A DNA stretch of 64,000 bases. Source: an uncultured Halobacteriales archaeon (lineage in GTDB: Archaea > Thermoplasmatota > E2 > JACPAO01 > JAHFTW01). Below are positions 1,790 to 42,162 of the stretch, in pieces (the first letter of the stretch is position 1; each line of letters starts with the position of its first letter). The translations under genes were made by a program, and so were the position numbers. The stretch spans positions 13,549 to 77,548 of the forward strand of contig CAZXUC010000003.1 in assembly GCA_964643795.1 (NCBI GenBank). The letters are read 5' to 3'. The notes under the pieces are model-generated. The model was given only the letters and a program-made list of their open reading frames with translations. It did not search any database and was not told the origin of the DNA.

Positions 1790-1865
1790 GCTCGCGGCAC
1801 TTGGGGGGTCGATATGAGGCCGTTGGGCCGCCCGGTGGCAAATTGGGCCGGTGTGCCGTAGAACT

Positions 1866-2043
1866 GGAGGCCTGGGATTTCACACATTCACACAGATTTA
1901 GGTCCTCAGTGGGTGCGCCCTTTCACGCGGAGGTCGCGGAATCCCGCGGAATCGTTTCCGCGACTTTCGCGTTCTCCGCGTGAGGTGTAGTGCGTTGCGC
2001 GCGAGTACACAATCTGTGAATTTCTGTGCAATCCCAGGCCTCC
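1866..2043. repeat. P-type long-hairpin MITE-like element (178 bp), followed by a degenerate T tail to about 2110
   Basis: Terminal inverted repeats GGAGGCCTGGGATTTCACA / TGTGCAATCCCAGGCCTCC. Internal arms CACGCGGAG-GTCGCGGAA...TTCCGCGAC...CTCCGCGTG. Near-identical copy at 41900-42077. Confidence 0.8.
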
Positions 2044-2115
2044 CACACTACGGCCTTCCATCCAACCTGGACCGGCGACCGGCACACCCATCAACCTCCG
2101 CCCGACTGCGACCCC

Positions 2116-6686: not shown

Positions 6687-7309
6687 CCTTTTCCGCAGAT
6701 TGCGCAGATTACGCAGAACGTTGCAGTCGCCTCGTGCCGGTGCAATCTGCGACCGGTCCCGACCATGCCAGCAATGCGGCGAGCCAATGGCGCGCCACGT
6801 TCGAATCAGTCTTCGACGGGCCCCGACTTCCGCCGGCGACGTGGGCGAGGCGATGAACCAGAAACGTCAAGTCAATGCTCGCGGCGATGCGCGCCGCCCA
6901 CACGCGTAGGCCGCGGAACCACGCGGAACGCCGTGGGCCTCGGCGTTTTCCGCGCGCTCCGCGTGAAGAAAGGGAGGCAGGGGAGTCCACACAAACCAGG
7001 GATAAGAAATGGTCCTCGTGGCAGGGCCGAGGTCGAGATTCTGTGAAAATCCGTGCAATCCCAAGCCTCCCACACTACGGCCGCGGCGTCAACCGGGAAC
7101 CCGTGAACGACGCCCCTGCCGTCGGCGGACTGCGGTAAGTCATGTGACAGCGGTTCTGAACACGAGCGACCTCGCCAGTCTAGCGACCATCCGACCGGGG
7201 GTTACGGAGATTTCGGGGAGACTGGGTCACAGTCAGTTCCCCGTAATTCTCGGAATCCTCGGTAGGGCGTGGGGGTCGTTCTGCGTAATCGTCGAAATCT
7301 GCGGAAAGG
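6687..7309. repeat. Composite non-coding element, copy A (modules Q-mid-S-P(98 bp)-T-W-Q'), bounded by 31-32 bp terminal inverted repeats
   Basis: Left end CCTTTTCCGCAGATTGCGCAGATTACGCAGAA (6687-6718). Reverse complement of the right end (7279-7309) is CCTTTCCGCAGATTTCGACGATTACGCAGAA. The interior is homologous to 37383-37793 and, inverted, to 31759-32130. Confidence 0.8.
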
Positions 7310-14446: not shown

Positions 14447-14737
14447 GGAGGCCTGGGATTGCACAGATATCCACAGAACGTGACCTCGCGCCGTGCCGCG
14501 TAGCCCGGTCCGCCGATTTCGCCGCTGACGCCGAACACGGTCGTCCCGCCATCGGCGAAATAGGCGTCATCGGCGGATTGGAGGTCGTTTTCGGCTGGAG
14601 AGGCCGAACGAGGCAGCGAATCTGTGAGGCTCTGTGAAATCCCAGGCCGCCCACACTACGGCCGACGATCTCGTAAAGCCGCCGCAACCTGCTTCAACCG
14701 CAAACCGTAGACGACGCCGCCGGCGGACTGCGGTAAG
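14447..14737. repeat. P/T-type element with a different internal core (CCGCCGATTTCGCCG ... CGGCGAAAT... hairpin)
   Basis: GGAGGCCTGGGATTGCACAGA ... TCTGTGAAATCCCAGGCCGCC, then T tail CACACTACGGCC...GGCGGACTGCGGTAAG. Confidence 0.75.
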
Positions 14738-17335: not shown

Positions 17336-19012
17336 ATGCAGCGGTCGTTTTCCCTGTTCTCCAAGGGGTTGTTTACCATGGTCGCCCTCTTGCTATCCGT
17401 GTCCATGCTGGCTTCGGCAGGTTCGTCGCCGACGTTCGGCCAAAGCGGCGCGCCAGTATGGCAAGAGGATCCCGCTCCCAGCGGACTCACTGGCGCCAAC
17501 CAAGCTGGCGAACCCACCATCGGGATTCCGTGGGACTCCGGGGCCGTCATGTACATGGCAAACGAGCACGTCTTTCGCATCACGTACACCGAGAATGGCA
17601 GCACAACCTGGGAGCTCGTGACGCCCGATCTCGCCGGCGGCCTCGTCGGCGGGGGAATCCCAAACTTAGACCCCATGCTGCACTCTGACCCAATCACGGG
17701 GCGCACCTGGGCCGGGGGGCTGCTCACTGCCTGCAGTCTCATGTATTACACGGACGACGACGGCGAGACGTGGGACCAGACCGGTAACATGTGCGGAATC
17801 TACGGCGTCGACCATCAGACGATAGGCTCCGGCCCATGGACTTCCGCGCGGCCCCCTGGCGCCCTCTACGAGCGGGCCGTCTACTATTGCGCGCATGGCG
17901 AGGCCATCGACACCCCACTCCCGCTCTTCGCCGCCGCGAGTCCGACGGCGTGCCTTACCAGCCTCGACGGCGGCGTCACTTGGGGCCCTCCTGTACCTTG
18001 GGTTGGCGGCTGCGGCTCGCTGCACGGACACGTCAAGGTCGGACCGACGGGTTTCGCGGCCGTGCCGGATGCGGACTGCTCCGTACTGTCCGGCGAAGGC
18101 GGCGGCACTGCTCCTGAGTTTGCCGGTTTTGCCTACTCCGATAACAACGGGGCAACCTGGATGAGTCGCACCGTTGCCGGGTCAACGCCGAATCAGCCTT
18201 TCGACAATCCTGGACTTGACTTTGGCCACGACGCGGGTTGGCTGTGGTACGGCCAGGCCGCCGACAACGGCGCATTCGTGGCTTTGTCGAAGGACAACGG
18301 CTTGACCTGGGAAGACATCGGCGCCGGCATGGGCCAAAACGCCACGACATGGCTCGATGTCGGCCGCCTGCATGACCCGCCAATCGTCGCCGCGACGTTT
18401 GCCAAGGTCGTCGCGGGCGACGACGATCGCGTCGCCTTCTCCTTCCTCGGCGTCGAGGAGCCTGCCGACGGCAAGTCCCTCCCTGATCCTCACCAGTGCA
18501 CGGAGAAGCAAGAGCTCCTCATCTGGCACTACTACGTCGCCATGAGTTACGATGCCGGCCTCACGTGGCGCGTCCAACGCCTCACCGCGGACCCCGTCCA
18601 GATCGGCGGCATCTGGCAGGGCCAGGTCCCCGGCGACCAGGACCCCGCCCGGTGGTGCCGCAACCTCCTGGATTTCAACGACATGGACATCGACGCGCAG
18701 GGTCGCCTCTACATTTCCTTCGCCGACGGCTGCACCGGCGACTGCATCGAAAAAGGGACCAAGGCCTCGTCGGGCTACCGCGACGACTACGCCACCATGC
18801 TCCGCCAAGTAACCGGCAACGGCCTGTTCGCTGGGTTCGACGTCGCCCCGCCTGGAAACGTGACCCAGGAACTTGAGCCAGGTTACGTCAACGTACCGGC
18901 ACCCAACACCGCAACGCAGACGGACGGGGGCAAGGAATCTCCCGGCCCGATGTTCGTCGTCGTGTTGGCCCTCATGGTAGCCGTCGTCATGCTGCGCCGG
19001 CGCAACGCTTAG
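17336..19012 (+). CDS. Secreted BNR/Asp-box repeat (sialidase-fold-like) protein with C-terminal PG-hydrophobic-RRR anchor
   Basis: Signal peptide. Asp-boxes YTDDDGETW, SLDGGVTW, SDNNGATW, SKDNGLTW, SYDAGLTW. C-terminus PGPMFVVVLALMVAVVMLRRRNA. Confidence 0.75.
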   Translation: MQRSFSLFSKGLFTMVALLLSVSMLASAGSSPTFGQSGAPVWQEDPAPSGLTGANQAGEPTIGIPWDSGAVMYMANEHVFRITYTENGSTTWELVTPDLAGGLVGGGIPNLDPMLHSDPITGRTWAGGLLTACSLMYYTDDDGETWDQTGNMCGIYGVDHQTIGSGPWTSARPPGALYERAVYYCAHGEAIDTPLPLFAAASPTACLTSLDGGVTWGPPVPWVGGCGSLHGHVKVGPTGFAAVPDADCSVLSGEGGGTAPEFAGFAYSDNNGATWMSRTVAGSTPNQPFDNPGLDFGHDAGWLWYGQAADNGAFVALSKDNGLTWEDIGAGMGQNATTWLDVGRLHDPPIVAATFAKVVAGDDDRVAFSFLGVEEPADGKSLPDPHQCTEKQELLIWHYYVAMSYDAGLTWRVQRLTADPVQIGGIWQGQVPGDQDPARWCRNLLDFNDMDIDAQGRLYISFADGCTGDCIEKGTKASSGYRDDYATMLRQVTGNGLFAGFDVAPPGNVTQELEPGYVNVPAPNTATQTDGGKESPGPMFVVVLALMVAVVMLRRRNA

Positions 19013-21012
19013 CCTGGATTTTCGCGTCTCGGGGGCCGTTACGGTTTCTCCCTGCTCAGATGGGCGACTTCTCCTGAGCTGGTAGGCCAGCCACCCGGGT
19101 TTCCGTAACGGATGGTAGTGAAAACGCCGTCCGGCACGTAGCGCCAACCGAGCCCCATTCACGGGCGCGGCCGCGCCTCTCTCGGAGGGCCAAAGCTTGG
19201 CGTGGACCCTCCGCCACGATCAAACCGCAAGCCATTACTACCATCATTCCATTACGGCCCTACGTGAAGGGAACGCGAGCCTACTTCGAGCACCCGACTC
19301 ACCTCTTGCAGCGGCGCTACGAAGCGTTGCGTGCCCTGGTCGTCGACAACGAGGAACTCGAAACCGCCGCGAAACGCTTCGGCTACAAGCCCGAGAGCCT
19401 GCGTGTCCTGCACTCCCGCTTCCGAAACGGCGACCTGGACCCCTTCATGGCCACCGGCATCCCAGGCTCCCCCCCACGAAGCCGCCCCGAAGCCACCCGC
19501 GAAGCCGTTCTCGAAGCACGCCGGCAAGGCTTGAGCATGGAAGAGATCCCCGCCTACGTCGCCGACAATGGCATCAGCATCTCACCCATGACCGCCTGGC
19601 GCATTCTGCGCGACGCCGGCATCCAGCGCCTCCCGAAACGCAGCGCCAAGGACCGCGCCCCCACCCTTGCGTCAACCATGGCCGACGCCGACCAAGTCGA
19701 CTTGACAAACCGCGTCATCGATTGCCGCGCGCCCCTCGTCTTTCTCTTTGCGCCCCTTCTGCACGAGATGCGGCTCGATGATGCAATCGCAGCTGCCAAC
19801 TTCCCCGGAACCAACCAGATTACCGCCACCGCCAGCATGCGCAGTCTACTGGCCCTCAAACTCCTCAACCGCCCACGCAAGAACCACGTTGCAGCCATCA
19901 GCGACGACGAAGGATTTGGGTTGCTGGCCGGCCTCCACGTCTTGCCGAAAACTACCGCGCTGAGCACCTACTCCCACCGCGTCCCCGACCAATCCATCCG
20001 CACCTTACAGGAAACCTGGGCCCAACGATTCGCGCAAACCCAACACTTCCCCTCCGCCAGCTTCAACTTCGATTTCCACGCCATCCGGCACTACGGCGAA
20101 TCCTCCGCCCATCTGGAAACCAACTACGTGCCGCGGCGCAGCCAAAGCGTCCCGAGCATCCTCGTTGCCTTCGCCCAAGAAGCCACCACGCGCACCCTCG
20201 TCTACGCCAACGCCAACCTCCTCAAACGCGAAAAGAACGCCGAGATCCTGGCGTTCGTCGAGTACTGGTACAAAGTCACCGGCACCTACCCGAAGGAGGT
20301 CGTCTTCGACACGCAGGGCACCACCCACGAAAGCCTCGCCAAACTCGACCAACTCGGCATCACCTTCATCACACTCCGCGAACGAAGACCCAAGGAAGTC
20401 AAACGCCTCAACTCCCTGCCCGACGATGCGTGGACACGCATCGAGCTCGACGCACCACAACGCAAGTGGCGCACACCCCGCATCGTCGACGAAAAAGTCA
20501 CCGTCCAGGACTACCCGATCCCCATCCGCCAGATTGCCCTGCATGACCTCGGTCACGACGAACCCACCCTGCTCTTGACCAACGACACCCGGCGTGGACC
20601 CGCCAAACTCTTCGAGCGCTACACCCAACGCACCCCCATCGAGAACTCCATCGGCGAACAAGTCGGCTTCTTCCACGTCGACGCCCTCACCAGCGACGTC
20701 CGACTCAAAGTCGACCTCGACGTGACGCTCCGCGTGATTGCCAGCAACGCCTACCACTGGCTTGCGGGCCACCTCAAAGGCTTCGAGGCCGCCACGGCCG
20801 CCACCATCTGGCGCACCTTCCTCGACCGCCCGGGCAAGGTCATCCTCACAGACGACACCATCACCCTCCAGGTGCGCCGCTTCGCCCAAGCCCCCACCCT
20901 CCTGTCCTCCCCCCTTCTCAAAGCGACCCCTCCCATCCCCGGGCTAGGCAACCGGCGACTCGCCCTTCGCCTCCTGTAGGCCGTAACGGGGGGTGTCACG
21001 CGAAAATCCAGG
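19013..21012 (+). mobile_element. Intact IS element (about 2.0 kb) with 32-bp imperfect TIRs and 4-bp TTAG target duplication
   Basis: The left end CCTGGATTTTCGCGT (19013-19027) is the reverse complement of 20998-21012. A second matching block CCGTTACGG sits 23 nt in from both ends. TTAG lies at 19009-19012 and 21013-21016. Confidence 0.85.
19264..20979 (+). CDS. DDE-type transposase (IS4-superfamily-like; family not assignable here)
   Basis: 571 aa. N-terminal HTH (LSMEEIPAYVADNGISISPMTAWRILRDAG). Candidate acidic residues in FDFHAI, VVFDTQG and YTQRTPIENSIGEQ (Y-x2-R-x3-E signature). Confidence 0.8.
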   Translation: MKGTRAYFEHPTHLLQRRYEALRALVVDNEELETAAKRFGYKPESLRVLHSRFRNGDLDPFMATGIPGSPPRSRPEATREAVLEARRQGLSMEEIPAYVADNGISISPMTAWRILRDAGIQRLPKRSAKDRAPTLASTMADADQVDLTNRVIDCRAPLVFLFAPLLHEMRLDDAIAAANFPGTNQITATASMRSLLALKLLNRPRKNHVAAISDDEGFGLLAGLHVLPKTTALSTYSHRVPDQSIRTLQETWAQRFAQTQHFPSASFNFDFHAIRHYGESSAHLETNYVPRRSQSVPSILVAFAQEATTRTLVYANANLLKREKNAEILAFVEYWYKVTGTYPKEVVFDTQGTTHESLAKLDQLGITFITLRERRPKEVKRLNSLPDDAWTRIELDAPQRKWRTPRIVDEKVTVQDYPIPIRQIALHDLGHDEPTLLLTNDTRRGPAKLFERYTQRTPIENSIGEQVGFFHVDALTSDVRLKVDLDVTLRVIASNAYHWLAGHLKGFEAATAATIWRTFLDRPGKVILTDDTITLQVRRFAQAPTLLSSPLLKATPPIPGLGNRRLALRLL

Positions 21013-21266
21013 TTAGACCCAGCGTCATCGCGCGGAAAATCAGTGGCGGCAGCCGGTCCGTCAAGGGAGCCCAGGTCCGGGCCCTCTTGACCAGTGTCCT
21101 GCAGAGCCTCCGGCTCCAGGGACAAGACTTCCTCCAGGGGGCGGGCCTCGGTCCACCCCCGACCCCAACCTCAGACGGCTGAGTTGTTACGCCTGGAGCG
21201 ACTGGCTCGATTGCATCATTGGTTCGTCGACGAACGGGGAAGTCTGAGTACGTGGAGGCAACTGTG

Positions 21267-31704: not shown

Positions 31705-31758
31705 GTGTCGCGTCCGCCAACGCCGCAATTCCAGCGTTCTCGAATCTGGCACACATGG

Positions 31759-32130
31759 CTTACCGCAGTCCGCCGACGGCGTCGTCCACGGGTTCCACGT
31801 TGACACCGCGGCCGTGGTGTGGGAGGCCTGGGATTGCACGGATTTCCACAGAATCTTGACCTCGACCCTGCCACGAGGACCATATCGTATCCCTGGTTTC
31901 TGTGAAATCCCAGGCCTCCCTTTCTTCGGCCGGTGTGAATACGGCGCGCGGCGACGCCAGCACCGTCAAGGCGGTTGGAGTTCGCGCGGCCATCGACGTC
32001 GCCGGCGGAAGTCGGGTCCCGTCGAAGACTGATACGAACGCGGCGCGCCCGTGGACGACAGATTGCTTGCGTGACCGGGACCCGTCGAAGATTGTACCGG
32101 CACGTTGCGGCTGCATCCCGCCCCACTTTC
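31759..32130. repeat. Composite non-coding element, copy B (inverted: T-P(98 bp)-mid)
   Basis: CTTACCGCAGTCCGCCGAC...GGAGGCCTGGGATTGCACGGA...TGTGAAATCCCAGGCCTCC, then a mid region whose reverse complement aligns to 6740-6900 and 37450-37630. Confidence 0.8.
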
Positions 32131-37382: not shown

Positions 37383-37793
37383 CGCAGATTTCGTGCACCA
37401 CCTTTTCCGCAGATTACGCAGATTTCGCAGAGCGCTGCGGTCACCGCGTGCCTGTGCAATCTGCGACCGGTCCCGATGCTTCGAGCAATGCGGTAATCCA
37501 AGGGCGCGCCGCGGCCGTAGCCATCTGCGAGTGGACCCGCCAAACTCCGACGACGTCGGCGGGCACGTGAGGAACCAACCTTGACTCGATGATGGCGGCG
37601 CCGCGCGCCGCAGTCACACCCATCGAAGAAAGGGAGGCCTGGGATTTCACAGAAACCAGGGATGCAAAATGGTCCTCGTGGCAGGGTCGAGGTCAAGATT
37701 CTGTGGAAATCTGTGCAATCCCAGGCCTCCCACACCACGGCCGCGGTGTCAACGTGGAACCCGTGGACGACGCCGTCGGCCGACTGCGGTAAG
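37383..37793. repeat. Composite non-coding element, copy C (Q-Q-mid-P(98 bp)-T)
   Basis: CACCTTTTCCGCAGATTTCG...CACCTTTTCCGCAGATTACGCAGATTTCGCAGA; GGAGGCCTGGGATTTCACAGA...TGTGCAATCCCAGGCCTCC (37633-37730); tail ...GGCCGACTGCGGTAAG. Confidence 0.8.
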
Positions 37794-37837
37794 CCATGTG
37801 GCCGGTGGCTTCGAAAACGAGTGACGGCGCGAGGTGC

Positions 37838-40304: not shown

Positions 40305-40376
40305 GCCGCCTTAGCTTAGCGGTGGAGCGGCGGACTGTTAATCCGCAGGTCGTCGGTTCAAATCCGACAGGCGGCG
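40305..40376 (+). tRNA. tRNA-Asn (GTT)
   Basis: Hand-folded cloverleaf: acceptor GCCGCCT/AGGCGGC, anticodon arm GCGGA-CTGTTAA-TCCGC, T arm GTCGG-TTCAAAT-CCGAC, discriminator G. No encoded CCA. Confidence 0.9.
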
Positions 40377-40391
40377 CTAGTTCTTGCCAAC

Positions 40392-40405
40392 CGAAAACCC
40401 TTATC
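40392..40405 (+). promoter_or_regulatory. BRE/TATA-like motif CGAAAACCCTTATC
   Basis: Lies 16 nt after the tRNA-Asn 3' end and about 20-27 nt upstream of ATG 40423/40429. Confidence 0.4.
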
Positions 40406-40422
40406 GCAGCCGAACCGGTGCG

Positions 40423-41775
40423 ATGGCGATGGAAGGTCGGCCGGCACCGGAAGGGCGCGCATTCTTCTTCGTCGTCGCCCTCGGCGCGGCCGCCGGCCTA
40501 GGCGCCTGGTGGACCTACCCCCATCTTACCGCAGGCTCAGGCTCGCTCCACCTCATCCTGCTTGTCGCGGCTCTCGCGGTCTTGGGTCTTCCCGTCTTCA
40601 TGGCCGAAGGAGGCCTCGGCCAATTCCGCCGGCGCAACGTCGTGGATGCATTCGGACCGGGCCCGATGCGCGCCGCCGGTGCCTTCGTCGCCGTGAGTGC
40701 GGTGCTTGCAGCGGCGCTCGTTGCGGTCGTCACAGGATGGGCGGGCCGCATCGTCATCGAGTCGTTCCGCCCGGATTTCCTGGCCGATCCAGGCCGCGAG
40801 TTCCGGCTCTTGTCGCAGGGCAGCGACGCCATGCTCGGAGCGGCAGCCGTCCTCGCCGTGGCCGCCTTCGTGACGGCGCGCGGCATTCATCGCGGCGTCC
40901 GGCCCGCCGCCGTCATCGCCCTGAGCGCGATGTTCCTGCTCCTTGCCGGGCTCGTAATCTACGCAAATGTCCTTTCTGGCGCAACGCGGGCGCGCTCCGA
41001 CTATTTTTCGCCTGACTTCACCGGCGTGGCGGGCGCCGACTTCGTGCAGGCGGCACAGCAAGCGCTCCTCGTGGTAGCGGTCGGCGTTGGCTTGGTCGCG
41101 ACCCTCGCTGGGAACGGTCCTCACGACCGCAAACTCCCGCGCAAAGCCTTCGCAGTGGCCCTTGGCGCCGTCGCAGTGGTCCTGGCAATCGGCCTGTTCC
41201 TCGTCCCGCTGGCGGCGCACCATGACGCGGAATTGTCCGGGTCGGATGCCGTCTTTGGCGGGCTGTTCACCACCGCGCCTGAACTATTCGCCATGGCAGG
41301 CGAGTCAACCGGCGCCGTCCTCGCGGGGGCATTCTTCGCGGCGCTCGTTGCCTCCGGCATCGCAGCAATCCTGGCGCTCCTCGAGGTCCCCGTGACGTTC
41401 TTGATCGACCGCTGGCCTGCCTGGGGCCGACGCCGTTCTGCTCTGCTCGTTGCAATGGTCGCCTACCTCATCGCCATCCCCCTGGCATTCAGCCGCGCCC
41501 TCGTTGCCGACTCCGTCGTCATCCTCAGCGCCGTCCTGATTCCGCTGGGCGCTCTGCTGTTTTCCCTGCGCGTGGGCTGGGCGGGCCCAGGCATCCTCGA
41601 CGGCTACAACGTGGGGGACGCTCAACACAAGGTCAGCCTTCTCCTGCACCCTTGGTTGCGTTTCGTGACTCCAATCCTGTGCGCCTTCCTCGTCATAGTC
41701 GGCGTCATGGCCTTCTTCGCAGAGACCGGTTCCATCGAACGCGGAACCGGCGGTTTATGGTCATGGGTCCCGTAG
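40423..41775 (+). CDS. Multi-pass membrane transporter, divergent sodium:solute (NSS/SNF-like) family
   Basis: AAAGLGAWWTYPHLTAGSGSLHLILLVAALAVLGLPVFMAEGGLGQF resembles the NSS TM1-TM2 signature. About 11-12 hydrophobic segments. Confidence 0.6.
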   Translation: MAMEGRPAPEGRAFFFVVALGAAAGLGAWWTYPHLTAGSGSLHLILLVAALAVLGLPVFMAEGGLGQFRRRNVVDAFGPGPMRAAGAFVAVSAVLAAALVAVVTGWAGRIVIESFRPDFLADPGREFRLLSQGSDAMLGAAAVLAVAAFVTARGIHRGVRPAAVIALSAMFLLLAGLVIYANVLSGATRARSDYFSPDFTGVAGADFVQAAQQALLVVAVGVGLVATLAGNGPHDRKLPRKAFAVALGAVAVVLAIGLFLVPLAAHHDAELSGSDAVFGGLFTTAPELFAMAGESTGAVLAGAFFAALVASGIAAILALLEVPVTFLIDRWPAWGRRRSALLVAMVAYLIAIPLAFSRALVADSVVILSAVLIPLGALLFSLRVGWAGPGILDGYNVGDAQHKVSLLLHPWLRFVTPILCAFLVIVGVMAFFAETGSIERGTGGLWSWVP

Positions 41776-41783
41776 CACCACAC

Positions 41784-41867
41784 GCGGGGGTAGCCAAGCC
41801 CGGCCAACGGCGCCCGACTTAAGATCGGGTTCTTCGTGATTCGTCGGTTCAAATCCGACCCTCCGCA
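41784..41867 (+). tRNA. tRNA-Leu (TAA), class II with long variable region
   Basis: Acceptor GCGGGGG/CCTCCGC, anticodon arm CCCGA-CTTAAGA-TCGGG, T arm GTCGG-TTCAAAT-CCGAC, discriminator A. The variable arm pairs poorly. Confidence 0.8.
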
Positions 41868-41899: not shown

Positions 41900-42162
41900 G
41901 GAGGCCTGGGATTGCACAGATTCCTACAGATTCTGGTCCTCAATGGGTTCGCCCCTTCACGCGGAGGTCGCGGAACCCCGCGGAATCGCTTCCGCGACTT
42001 CCCGGTTCTCCGCGTGAAGTGTAGTGCGTTGCGTGCAAGAACACAATCTGTGAATTTCCGTGAAATCCCAAGCCTCCCACACTCCGGCCGACAGTCTCGC
42101 GATTCAAATCGTGCATCAACCGCAAACCGTGCACCACGCCCCCGTCGGCGGACTGCGGTAAG
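41900..42162. repeat. P-type long-hairpin element (41900-42077) plus long-form T tail (to 42162)
   Basis: Roughly 85-90% identical by eye to 1866-2043. The tail ends ...CCCGTCGGCGGACTGCGGTAAG. Confidence 0.8.

Follow-up and report, generated by a model that had tools for sequence, protein, structure and literature searches.

By its published description, SMR-A, a small mobile repeat of Haloquadratum walsbyi (HqIRS42/43/55; Dyall-Smith et al. 2011), is the closest known analogue of the repeat family reported here. SMR-A measures ~110 bp, carries inverted terminal repeats unrelated to any transposon, makes no target duplication, inserts in the palindromes of other elements, and its mobilisation was described as 'enigmatic' (PMC3119063). 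The present family, named P, comprises the hairpin repeats that include the 178-bp element at 1866-2043 of the window (the whole stretch of DNA that was analysed, 64,000 nt in length), and it shows the properties that define the SMR-A type: ~110 bp, transposon-unrelated terminal inverted repeats (TIRs), no target duplication and frequent occurrence. We consider it probable that P is a selfish, non-autonomous and gene-less palindromic 'small mobile repeat' that has TIRs, is often nested in other palindromic repeats, makes no target duplication and lacks a recognisable transposase partner. P has amplified to ~110 copies in this species alone, is confined to intergenic DNA and avoids divergent promoter spacers. 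The assembly that holds the window (2.78 Mb, 62 contigs, 64% GC, 88% complete) encodes ribosomal protein S28e, which among the controls was found in archaea only, and the host is therefore an archaeon. The P elements of the window, with the modules and conserved blocks next to them, are located as follows.

1811..1819, minus strand: conserved TATA-like block, reading CCTCATATC on the minus strand; kept in 10/10 orthologous spacers.
1866..2043, plus strand: P element, long form, copy 1 (178 bp), between a divergent helicase gene (start 1789, minus strand) and an enoyl-CoA hydratase gene (GTG start 2116, plus strand); left flank GAACT, right extension CACACTACGGCC reaching 2055; orthologous spacers are without P.
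1918..1983, no strand assigned: nested S-type word hairpin, CACGCGGAGGTCGCGGAA...TTCCGCGAC...CTCCGCGTG, the core of the long form.
2077..2096, plus strand: conserved block GACCGGCACACCCATCAACC; kept in the congeners G007, G011, G012, G009 and G003.
6973..7070, plus strand: P element, short form (98 bp), left terminus degenerate, part of a P+T composite; enclosed by T arms (6829-6847/7111-7129) and Q arms (6690-6720/7277-7307).
7071..7146, plus strand: T tail, CACACTACGGCC...GACGCC..GCCGTCGGCGGACTGCGGTAAGTCATGTG, joined to the CACAC end of P.
14447..14651, plus strand: P variant (205 bp) whose interior differs; CGTTT on its left, CACACTACGGCC on its right, then a T tail that ends near 14737.
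31822..31919, minus strand: P element, short form, inverted, with its T tail at 31752-31821.
37633..37730, plus strand: P element, short form, in a composite running from GAAGAAAG (37625) to ...GGTAAGCCATGTG (37800).
41900..42077, plus strand: P element, long form, copy 2 (88.2% identical to copy 1), 32 nt 3' of a tRNA-Leu gene (41784-41867) and followed by a long T tail to ~42162.

Upstream of copy 2, a transporter-like ORF (40384-41775) is tightly packed between tRNA-Asn and tRNA-Leu genes on the same strand (40305-41867).

The window was scanned with the terminus pattern GGAGGCCTGGGATTKCACA (up to 3 mismatches) and compared with shuffled sequence, which yielded 11 matches against 0.02 expected, at exactly the positions given by the original prediction for shared termini. 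A twelfth terminus, which bounds 6973-7070 on the left, has a degenerate sequence (GGAGGCAGGGGAGTCCACA), and with this proviso the same termini do bound the 98-bp elements at 6973-7070, 31822-31919 and 37633-37730. The original count of seven copies is one too many, since the coordinates then listed describe six elements, and the two 178-bp copies, called near-identical, agree at 157 of 178 positions; the three 98-bp copies are mutually 87-96% identical. The near-continuous internal palindrome holds insofar as the palindromes named are present, but it is imperfect because the self-complementarity of whole elements is ~59-72% (~72% for the two 178-bp copies). When folded as single-stranded DNA with 12-nt flanks, copy 1 formed a single long hairpin enclosing an inner one (-63.8 kcal/mol, z = -9.3), and z-scores of -5.2 and -6.7 were obtained for 98-bp copies.

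Extension of the terminus search to the whole assembly (again with up to 3 mismatches), a check that had been proposed at the outset, returned 217 termini, so the ends are conserved beyond the window. These resolve into 79 paired elements and ~30 elements with one degenerate end, that is, ~110 copies; 59 termini remained unpaired, most of them from copies whose other end is degenerate or which lie at a contig end. By size, the paired elements fall into a class of 73-125 bp (52 elements) and a class of 171-185 bp (22 elements), with a few larger ones, and 77 of the 79 measure 73-262 bp. Terminal repeats are 19-33 nt long, and a multi-copy, non-coding family with terminal inverted repeats is borne out. 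At 80% identity the elements form more than 30 sequence clusters rather than the three interiors first proposed, and the best pairs are 94-99.6% identical. Many contigs end in a P+T composite (e.g. C27:23-104, C29:23-104, C30:407-488 and C52:409-490, and likewise C61:63-144 and C59:3815-3896), from which we conclude that the P family is a main cause of breaks in this assembly.

The P core spans GGAGG to CCTCC, and the consensus end reads ...GCCGtaGTgTG / GGAGGCCTGGGATTgCACaGAttt.CACAGAat... (the slash marking the joint). Among 212 ends, a GAW(T/C) box starts at position 11 in 205, at position 20 in 126 and at position 30 in 147, and a CAC(A/G)GA box starts at position 16 in 197 and at position 26 in 161; these start positions place the boxes at about one per helical turn. 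Single arms are arrays of direct boxes, not palindromes. The two arms of an element differ systematically, a 'G arm' (..ATTGCACGGATT..) standing opposite a 'T arm' (..ATTTCACAGA..): at position 15, 59 of 79 elements have a G in the former and a T in the latter. Agreement between arms is far below that expected under independence at positions 15, 19, 22-25 and 34 (e.g. 14 vs 33 expected). The arms are thus anti-correlated, contrary to what compensatory change would produce, which speaks against selection for a perfect stem and in favour of two functionally distinct ends.

The joints of P with its surroundings are polar as well, with the form G-W-A-C-Y / GGAGG ... CCTCC / CACAC(T/C), usually followed by ACGGCC. 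In 66 of 79 elements one end is followed by CACAC(T/C)ACGGCC and the other is preceded by G-W-A-C-Y (e.g. GAACT, GTACC, GAACC or GAAAG). Across these 66 elements the left flank has G in 57, A or T in 56, A in 57 and C in 45, and on the right the bases of CACAC are found in 56-66, then ACGGCC; the right-side polar flank corresponds to CACACYACGGCC. GTAG is confined to the outer flank at one of the ends (GGCCGTAGTGTG). The interior may stand in either orientation relative to these flanks (sequence cluster 5 is cluster 4 inverted), and the orientation of the 'G arm' and 'T arm' relative to the flanks is divided 38 to 21.

Target-site duplications were sought at boundary offsets of 0-12 nt and lengths of 2-9 nt, and none was found, the excess over cross-pairs being at most ~5 of 79; nor was there one in the pair of elements that is 99.6% identical. 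The flanks of that pair looked inverted by eye, and an inverted flank duplication or palindromic target was tried and set aside: over the 79 elements, complementarity between an element's own left and right flanks equalled that of cross-pairs (mean 9.9 vs 9.9, p = 0.63), a comparison that does not bear on a single palindromic target common to all copies. A pre-existing CACACYACGGCC target was likewise rejected, because 63 of the 64 genomic copies of CACACYACGGC already adjoin a P end. Loose 'empty target' patterns had only a few matches in the genome, mostly unrelated.

Much of the variety among interiors can be traced to nesting. In the long form, a short-type shell encloses an S-type hairpin (TCACGCGGAGG TCGCGGAA ... 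TTCCGCGA ... CTCCGCGTGA), and this hairpin of CGCGGAA words is carried by 24 of 27 long elements and by 0 of 52 short ones. The core at 1918-1983 matches loci free of P in this genome and many loci in G003, G001, G002 and G006, species without P termini, so the S hairpin is an element in its own right. The original prediction read shared ends with different interiors as the mark of a MITE family; the interiors do differ, but chiefly through nesting, as the distribution of the S hairpin between long and short elements indicates.

Nor are the three 98-bp copies independent insertions, as they had been taken to be: all are pieces of a 176-nt composite, made up of GAAGAAAG, the hairpin and a T tail, of which there are ~30 copies in the genome. 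A consensus of 26 genomic copies is at least 80% conserved from GAAGAAAG through the hairpin to ...GACGACGCCGTCGGCGGACTGCGGTAAGCCATGTG, over ~176 nt. The T motif CGGCGGACTGCGGTAAG has 100 matches in the genome at up to 3 mismatches, of which ~80 are convincing (79 pass a threshold of up to 2 mismatches with a GC-rich left context), and it is found with or without P. Within the window, T tails lie at 7111-7146, 14700-14737, 31752-31790, 37765-37800 and 42125-42162. The T tail forms the right arm of a larger palindrome, the left arm being situated upstream, and at 6687-7309 Q arms surround T arms, which surround the S hairpin and P, in a nested conglomerate. The T motif follows 39 of 124 CACAC ends and T arms enclose P. 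P is thus found in larger composites, and these may also have spread as units. No PATE or IS605 palindromes were found in the assembly as hosts for P. In the congener G005, a P-like element (L053) is also followed by a T-like motif (CGCCGTCGGAGGACTGCGGGAATAG), which makes the P-T association older than the species. Regularly after a T tail stands a further module, CGACCGGGGATTACGGAGATTTCGGGGACACTGGGTCACAGTCCGTTCCCCGTAATTCCCGGAATCCTCGGTAGGC (7185-7290 in the window and ~40 other loci), a hairpin of GGGGATT/GGAGATT words, and this alternates with yet another module, CATTGCTGG...TCTGCGnnATCTGCGGAAAAG.

For the distribution of P among relatives, a 14-nt core terminus (GGAGGCYTGGGATT) was counted in the present genome and 60 relatives; controls with the pattern reversed gave 0. 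There were 170 occurrences in this genome, 16 in G011, 11 in G010, 2 each in G004 and G005, 1 in another genus of the family, and 0 in the other 55 of the 60 relatives. The copies in these four congeners have only the outermost GTGTGGGAGGCYTGGGATT / AATCCCRGGCCTCCCACAC in common with P, and their inner parts differ; the P family is thus close to lineage-specific. P termini had no matches in metagenome and viral contig collections, and an 18-mer terminus searched against public genome contigs gave, among the matches listed, single chance matches in unrelated phyla. Exact protein look-up found no close strains on record.

Insertion polymorphism in related genomes, another check proposed at the outset, was found in the form of orthologous sites without the element. 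The helicase/hydratase pair is syntenic across the genus, with a spacer of 326 nt here and P-free spacers of 78 nt in G011, 81 nt in G007, 128 nt in G012, 164 nt in G009, 168 nt in G002 and 193 nt in G003. Similarly, the composite at ~31734-32115 is missing from the sugar kinase/aminotransferase spacers of G009, G007, G005 and G006. Two copies of 262 bp are 99.6% identical in unrelated flanks, their identity running from 3 nt before GGAGG to CACACT; in other pairs, 93-98% identical, identity of the left flank is lost right at GGAGG, and the right flanks are alike for 6-12 nt more. The near restriction to one lineage, the empty sites in congeners and the 99.6% pair in unrelated flanks together indicate that P is, or recently was, mobile. 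With congeners ~70-78% identical in the flanking genes, no empty/filled pair was resolved to the base, and the right boundary is placed somewhere between +6 and +12 nt. Paralogous empty sites were also sought by joining the flanks of each copy, and no junction-spanning match was found in the assembly.

The helicase/hydratase spacer carries other word hairpins, unrelated to P, in three congeners, with the words CACGAA (G009, L065), CACGGA (G003, L066) and CGCGGA (G002, L073), and it is on this account a recurrent landing site. These three words and the CACAGA of P all fit C-R-C-R-G-A, and their presence at one spacer suggests one superfamily with a shared landing preference. In G010 (L069) and G001 (L071) the same spacer has an extra insert of ~830 nt that encodes a related, secreted-looking protein, found neither in this genome nor in the other species.

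The genomic setting of P was assessed against gene calls from a crude home-made codon-usage caller (1769 genes). Called genes contain 0 of the 217 termini once overlaps with an ORF's over-extended 5' part are discounted. The 95 occupied spacers comprise 57 tandem (63 expected), 33 convergent (16 expected) and 5 divergent ones (16 expected; chi-square p = 3e-6), and many copies have a stop codon 18-80 nt before them. The copies show no preferred direction with respect to the adjacent genes, 18 having the same and 23 the opposite direction. Copy 1 is one of the rare copies in a divergent spacer, and it was said that it must carry or displace promoter sequence. That does not follow, as the blocks conserved across species near both start codons are intact: GATATGAGG at 1811-1819, which is the TATA-like block on the helicase strand, is left of the insertion and ~21-26 nt upstream of the helicase ATG, and the block at 2077-2096, right of the insertion, precedes the hydratase GTG by 20-39 nt. 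Copy 1 therefore split the spacer without displacing promoter-proximal sequence. The two blocks are the putative promoters of the helicase and hydratase genes, and a rewiring of either promoter by copy 1 appears unlikely.

The mobilising enzyme was sought in six-frame searches of the assembly. Y1/RAYT (PF01797) gave 0 matches, with 6 of 14 control genomes positive; Y2 (PF04986) gave none, against a weak control (1 control genome positive, none above the family cut-off); and the best TnpB (PF07282) match scored 17 bits against a cut-off of 26.3, with 11 of 14 control genomes positive. No multi-copy transposase ORF was found in the assembly; the multi-copy ORFs that came up were MoxR ATPases or spurious frames through repeat DNA. 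Likewise, no insertion sequence (IS) with P-type ends (GGAGGCCTGGGATT) was found, and as the assembly is 88% complete, absence of an enzyme from it is not proof. The one IS of the window (19013-21012) is intact and single-copy, with TTAG duplications at 19009-19012 and 21013-21016, the left of which supplies the stop codon of the upstream gene. Its inverted ends of ~32 nt match exactly over the first 15 nt (CCTGGATTTTCGCGT) and share a CCGTTACGG block, and its 571-aa transposase (19264-20979) has no Pfam match at 0.001 and only a distant match to the IS1380 family (E = 8e-15, far below the cut-off). The terminus is only loosely like the inner P terminus CCTGGGATTTCACAG (~10 of 15 terminal bases by eye), and these ends occur nowhere else in the genome. 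We rejected this IS as the partner of P, since it is single-copy, its ends are found on no other sequence and its 4-bp duplication is absent from P.

The original prediction took P for a MITE family mobilised in trans. In the classical sense this would be a deletion derivative or terminal-repeat mimic of a DDE IS, moved in trans by cut-and-paste with staggered cleavage, and TIRs of 19-33 nt, a small element, a high copy number and more than one kind of interior are what it leads one to expect, as is the loose resemblance of the IS1380-like start to the inner P terminus. The TIRs, copy number and polymorphism of that proposal stand, but target-site duplications and an IS with matching ends are both missing: the IS1380-like element makes a 4-bp duplication that P does not and is itself single-copy, and the assembly has no multi-copy transposase ORF. 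If P were taken to end at CCTGG, every copy would have flanks of GAGG/CCTC, which are inverted and not direct, and neither polar flanks nor differentiated arms are expected of such an element; we regard this origin as quite improbable. A better, if still unlikely, candidate is a hairpin element handled as single strand by an HUH-type enzyme, an archaeal counterpart of REPIN/RAYT, of PATEs derived from IS200/IS605 or of IS91-like rolling-circle elements, in which the folded strand would be cut beside a short G-W-A-C-Y target and joined without duplication. It would account for the missing target duplication, for a left flank constrained over 5 nt yet variable among near-identical copies, for the polar ends, the strong single-strand fold and the GTAG in the outer flank, and for the conserved hairpin mismatches. 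Mismatches of this kind serve strand choice in IS608 and in REP hairpins. Against it, the six-frame genome search found no Y1, no Y2 (with a weak PF04986 control) and no convincing TnpB. The arms of P do not form self-palindromic REPs, its termini are true inverted repeats, a feature missing from IS200/IS605 and PATEs, and no orientation bias exists with respect to neighbouring genes.

P might instead serve the host, as phased binding sites for a chromatin or regulatory protein, as a 3'-end or insulator hairpin, or as a small structured RNA, and have been copied only secondarily. Its enrichment in convergent (3'-3') and depletion in divergent spacers, its many copies shortly after stop codons and the phasing of its boxes by one helical turn are consistent with such a role, yet purifying selection against insertion into promoters would account for the spacer bias equally well, and near-absence from most congeneric species argues against a conserved function. 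With Rfam covariance models run over the window, only two tRNAs reached the gathering score and P matched no family at threshold; the arm changes are anti-correlated, not compensatory, and there is no strand bias relative to genes, so that a host function has little probability. There is also a small chance that P is a branch of an undescribed archaeal superfamily of 'word-array palindromes', moved by neither DDE nor HUH enzymes and joined without target duplication at G-W-A-C-Y / ... / CACAC-type joints, with a preference for other hairpins. Its branches would include S (CGCGGAA words), Q (CGCAGATT words), the T arms and the CACGAA/CACGGA hairpins of congeners, all sharing a design of 2-3 copies of a C-R-C-R-G-A-W-T-like word per arm with a period of 9-10 nt, and the mover could be an enzyme or a replication-linked process. 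Were it correct, the superfamily would amount to an archaeal counterpart of the REPIN-RAYT world that runs on its own machinery.

If P is a selfish small mobile repeat, as we think probable, a protein supplied in trans would bind the phased boxes of both arms and would cut and join without staggered target cleavage, adjoining a G-W-A-C-Y target, with the conserved arm mismatches marking left versus right, or top versus bottom strand; selection would then purge insertions in genes or promoters. Mobilisation in trans is a proposed feature of P rather than an observed one. The polar joints, the G-W-A-C-Y flank and the arm mismatches hint at an enzyme that discriminates between strands or ends. 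Simple polar insertion, however, does not explain why interiors of either orientation are found between the polar flanks.

The ~110 copies of P and their partner modules make up a visible share of the non-coding DNA in a genome of ~3 Mb, and knowledge of the family is of use in assembling, binning and annotating genomes of this lineage; its near-absence in sister species dates a recent burst and gives natural strain-typing markers. As a second, unrelated host after Haloquadratum with the same puzzle, this archaeon sharpens the question of what moves small mobile repeats, for which the polar joints and differentiated arms of P are specific clues.

With the prokaryotic MITEs (Sulfolobus SM1-4, Correia/NEMIS, ERIC, RUP; PMC10969869), P shares small size, non-coding content, intergenic position, TIRs, multiple copies, insertion polymorphism between relatives, and common ends with varied interiors (the type II MITE pattern), and differs from them in its polar joints and in having neither target duplications nor an autonomous IS with related ends. 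Of the marks of a MITE, then, small size (below ~500 bp), lack of coding capacity, TIRs and copy polymorphism are present in P, and target duplication and a matching IS are absent. REP/REPIN/BIME repeats with RAYT in Proteobacteria resemble P in their hairpin doublets, in mosaic clusters of modules as in BIMEs, in the lack of target duplication, in enrichment at gene 3' ends, in lineage-specific bursts and in GTAG by one end; P, unlike them, has no RAYT/Y1, has non-palindromic single arms with boxes phased at 9-10 nt, and resides in an archaeon. It does not show the REP/REPIN unit, an imperfect palindrome of 20-40 nt with a 5' GTAG-type tag in inverted doublets. IS200/IS605-derived PATEs are also gene-less, make no target duplication, have palindromic parts and occur in archaeal hosts, but they lack TIRs and carry two subterminal hairpins, whereas P has true TIRs in an assembly without IS200/IS605 genes; its inverted termini and the lack of a Y1 and of a convincing TnpB place it outside the IS200/IS605-derived PATEs. 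The agreement with SMR-A is closest: both are archaeal, have a basic form of ~100-110 bp, TIRs unrelated to the transposons of the genome and no target duplication, are present in tens of copies or more, lie inside other palindromic repeats ('conglomerates'), and have a mobilising enzyme that is not identified. The differences are that P inhabits a high-GC archaeon outside the haloarchaea, that SMR-A targets the near-terminal palindromes of PATEs/IS605 (absent here) whereas P nests in the word-hairpin repeats T and Q, and that polar flanks and two differentiated arms are not reported for SMR-A (PMC3119063). P is probably an addition to the archaeal small mobile repeats, MITE-like and with some unusual end features.
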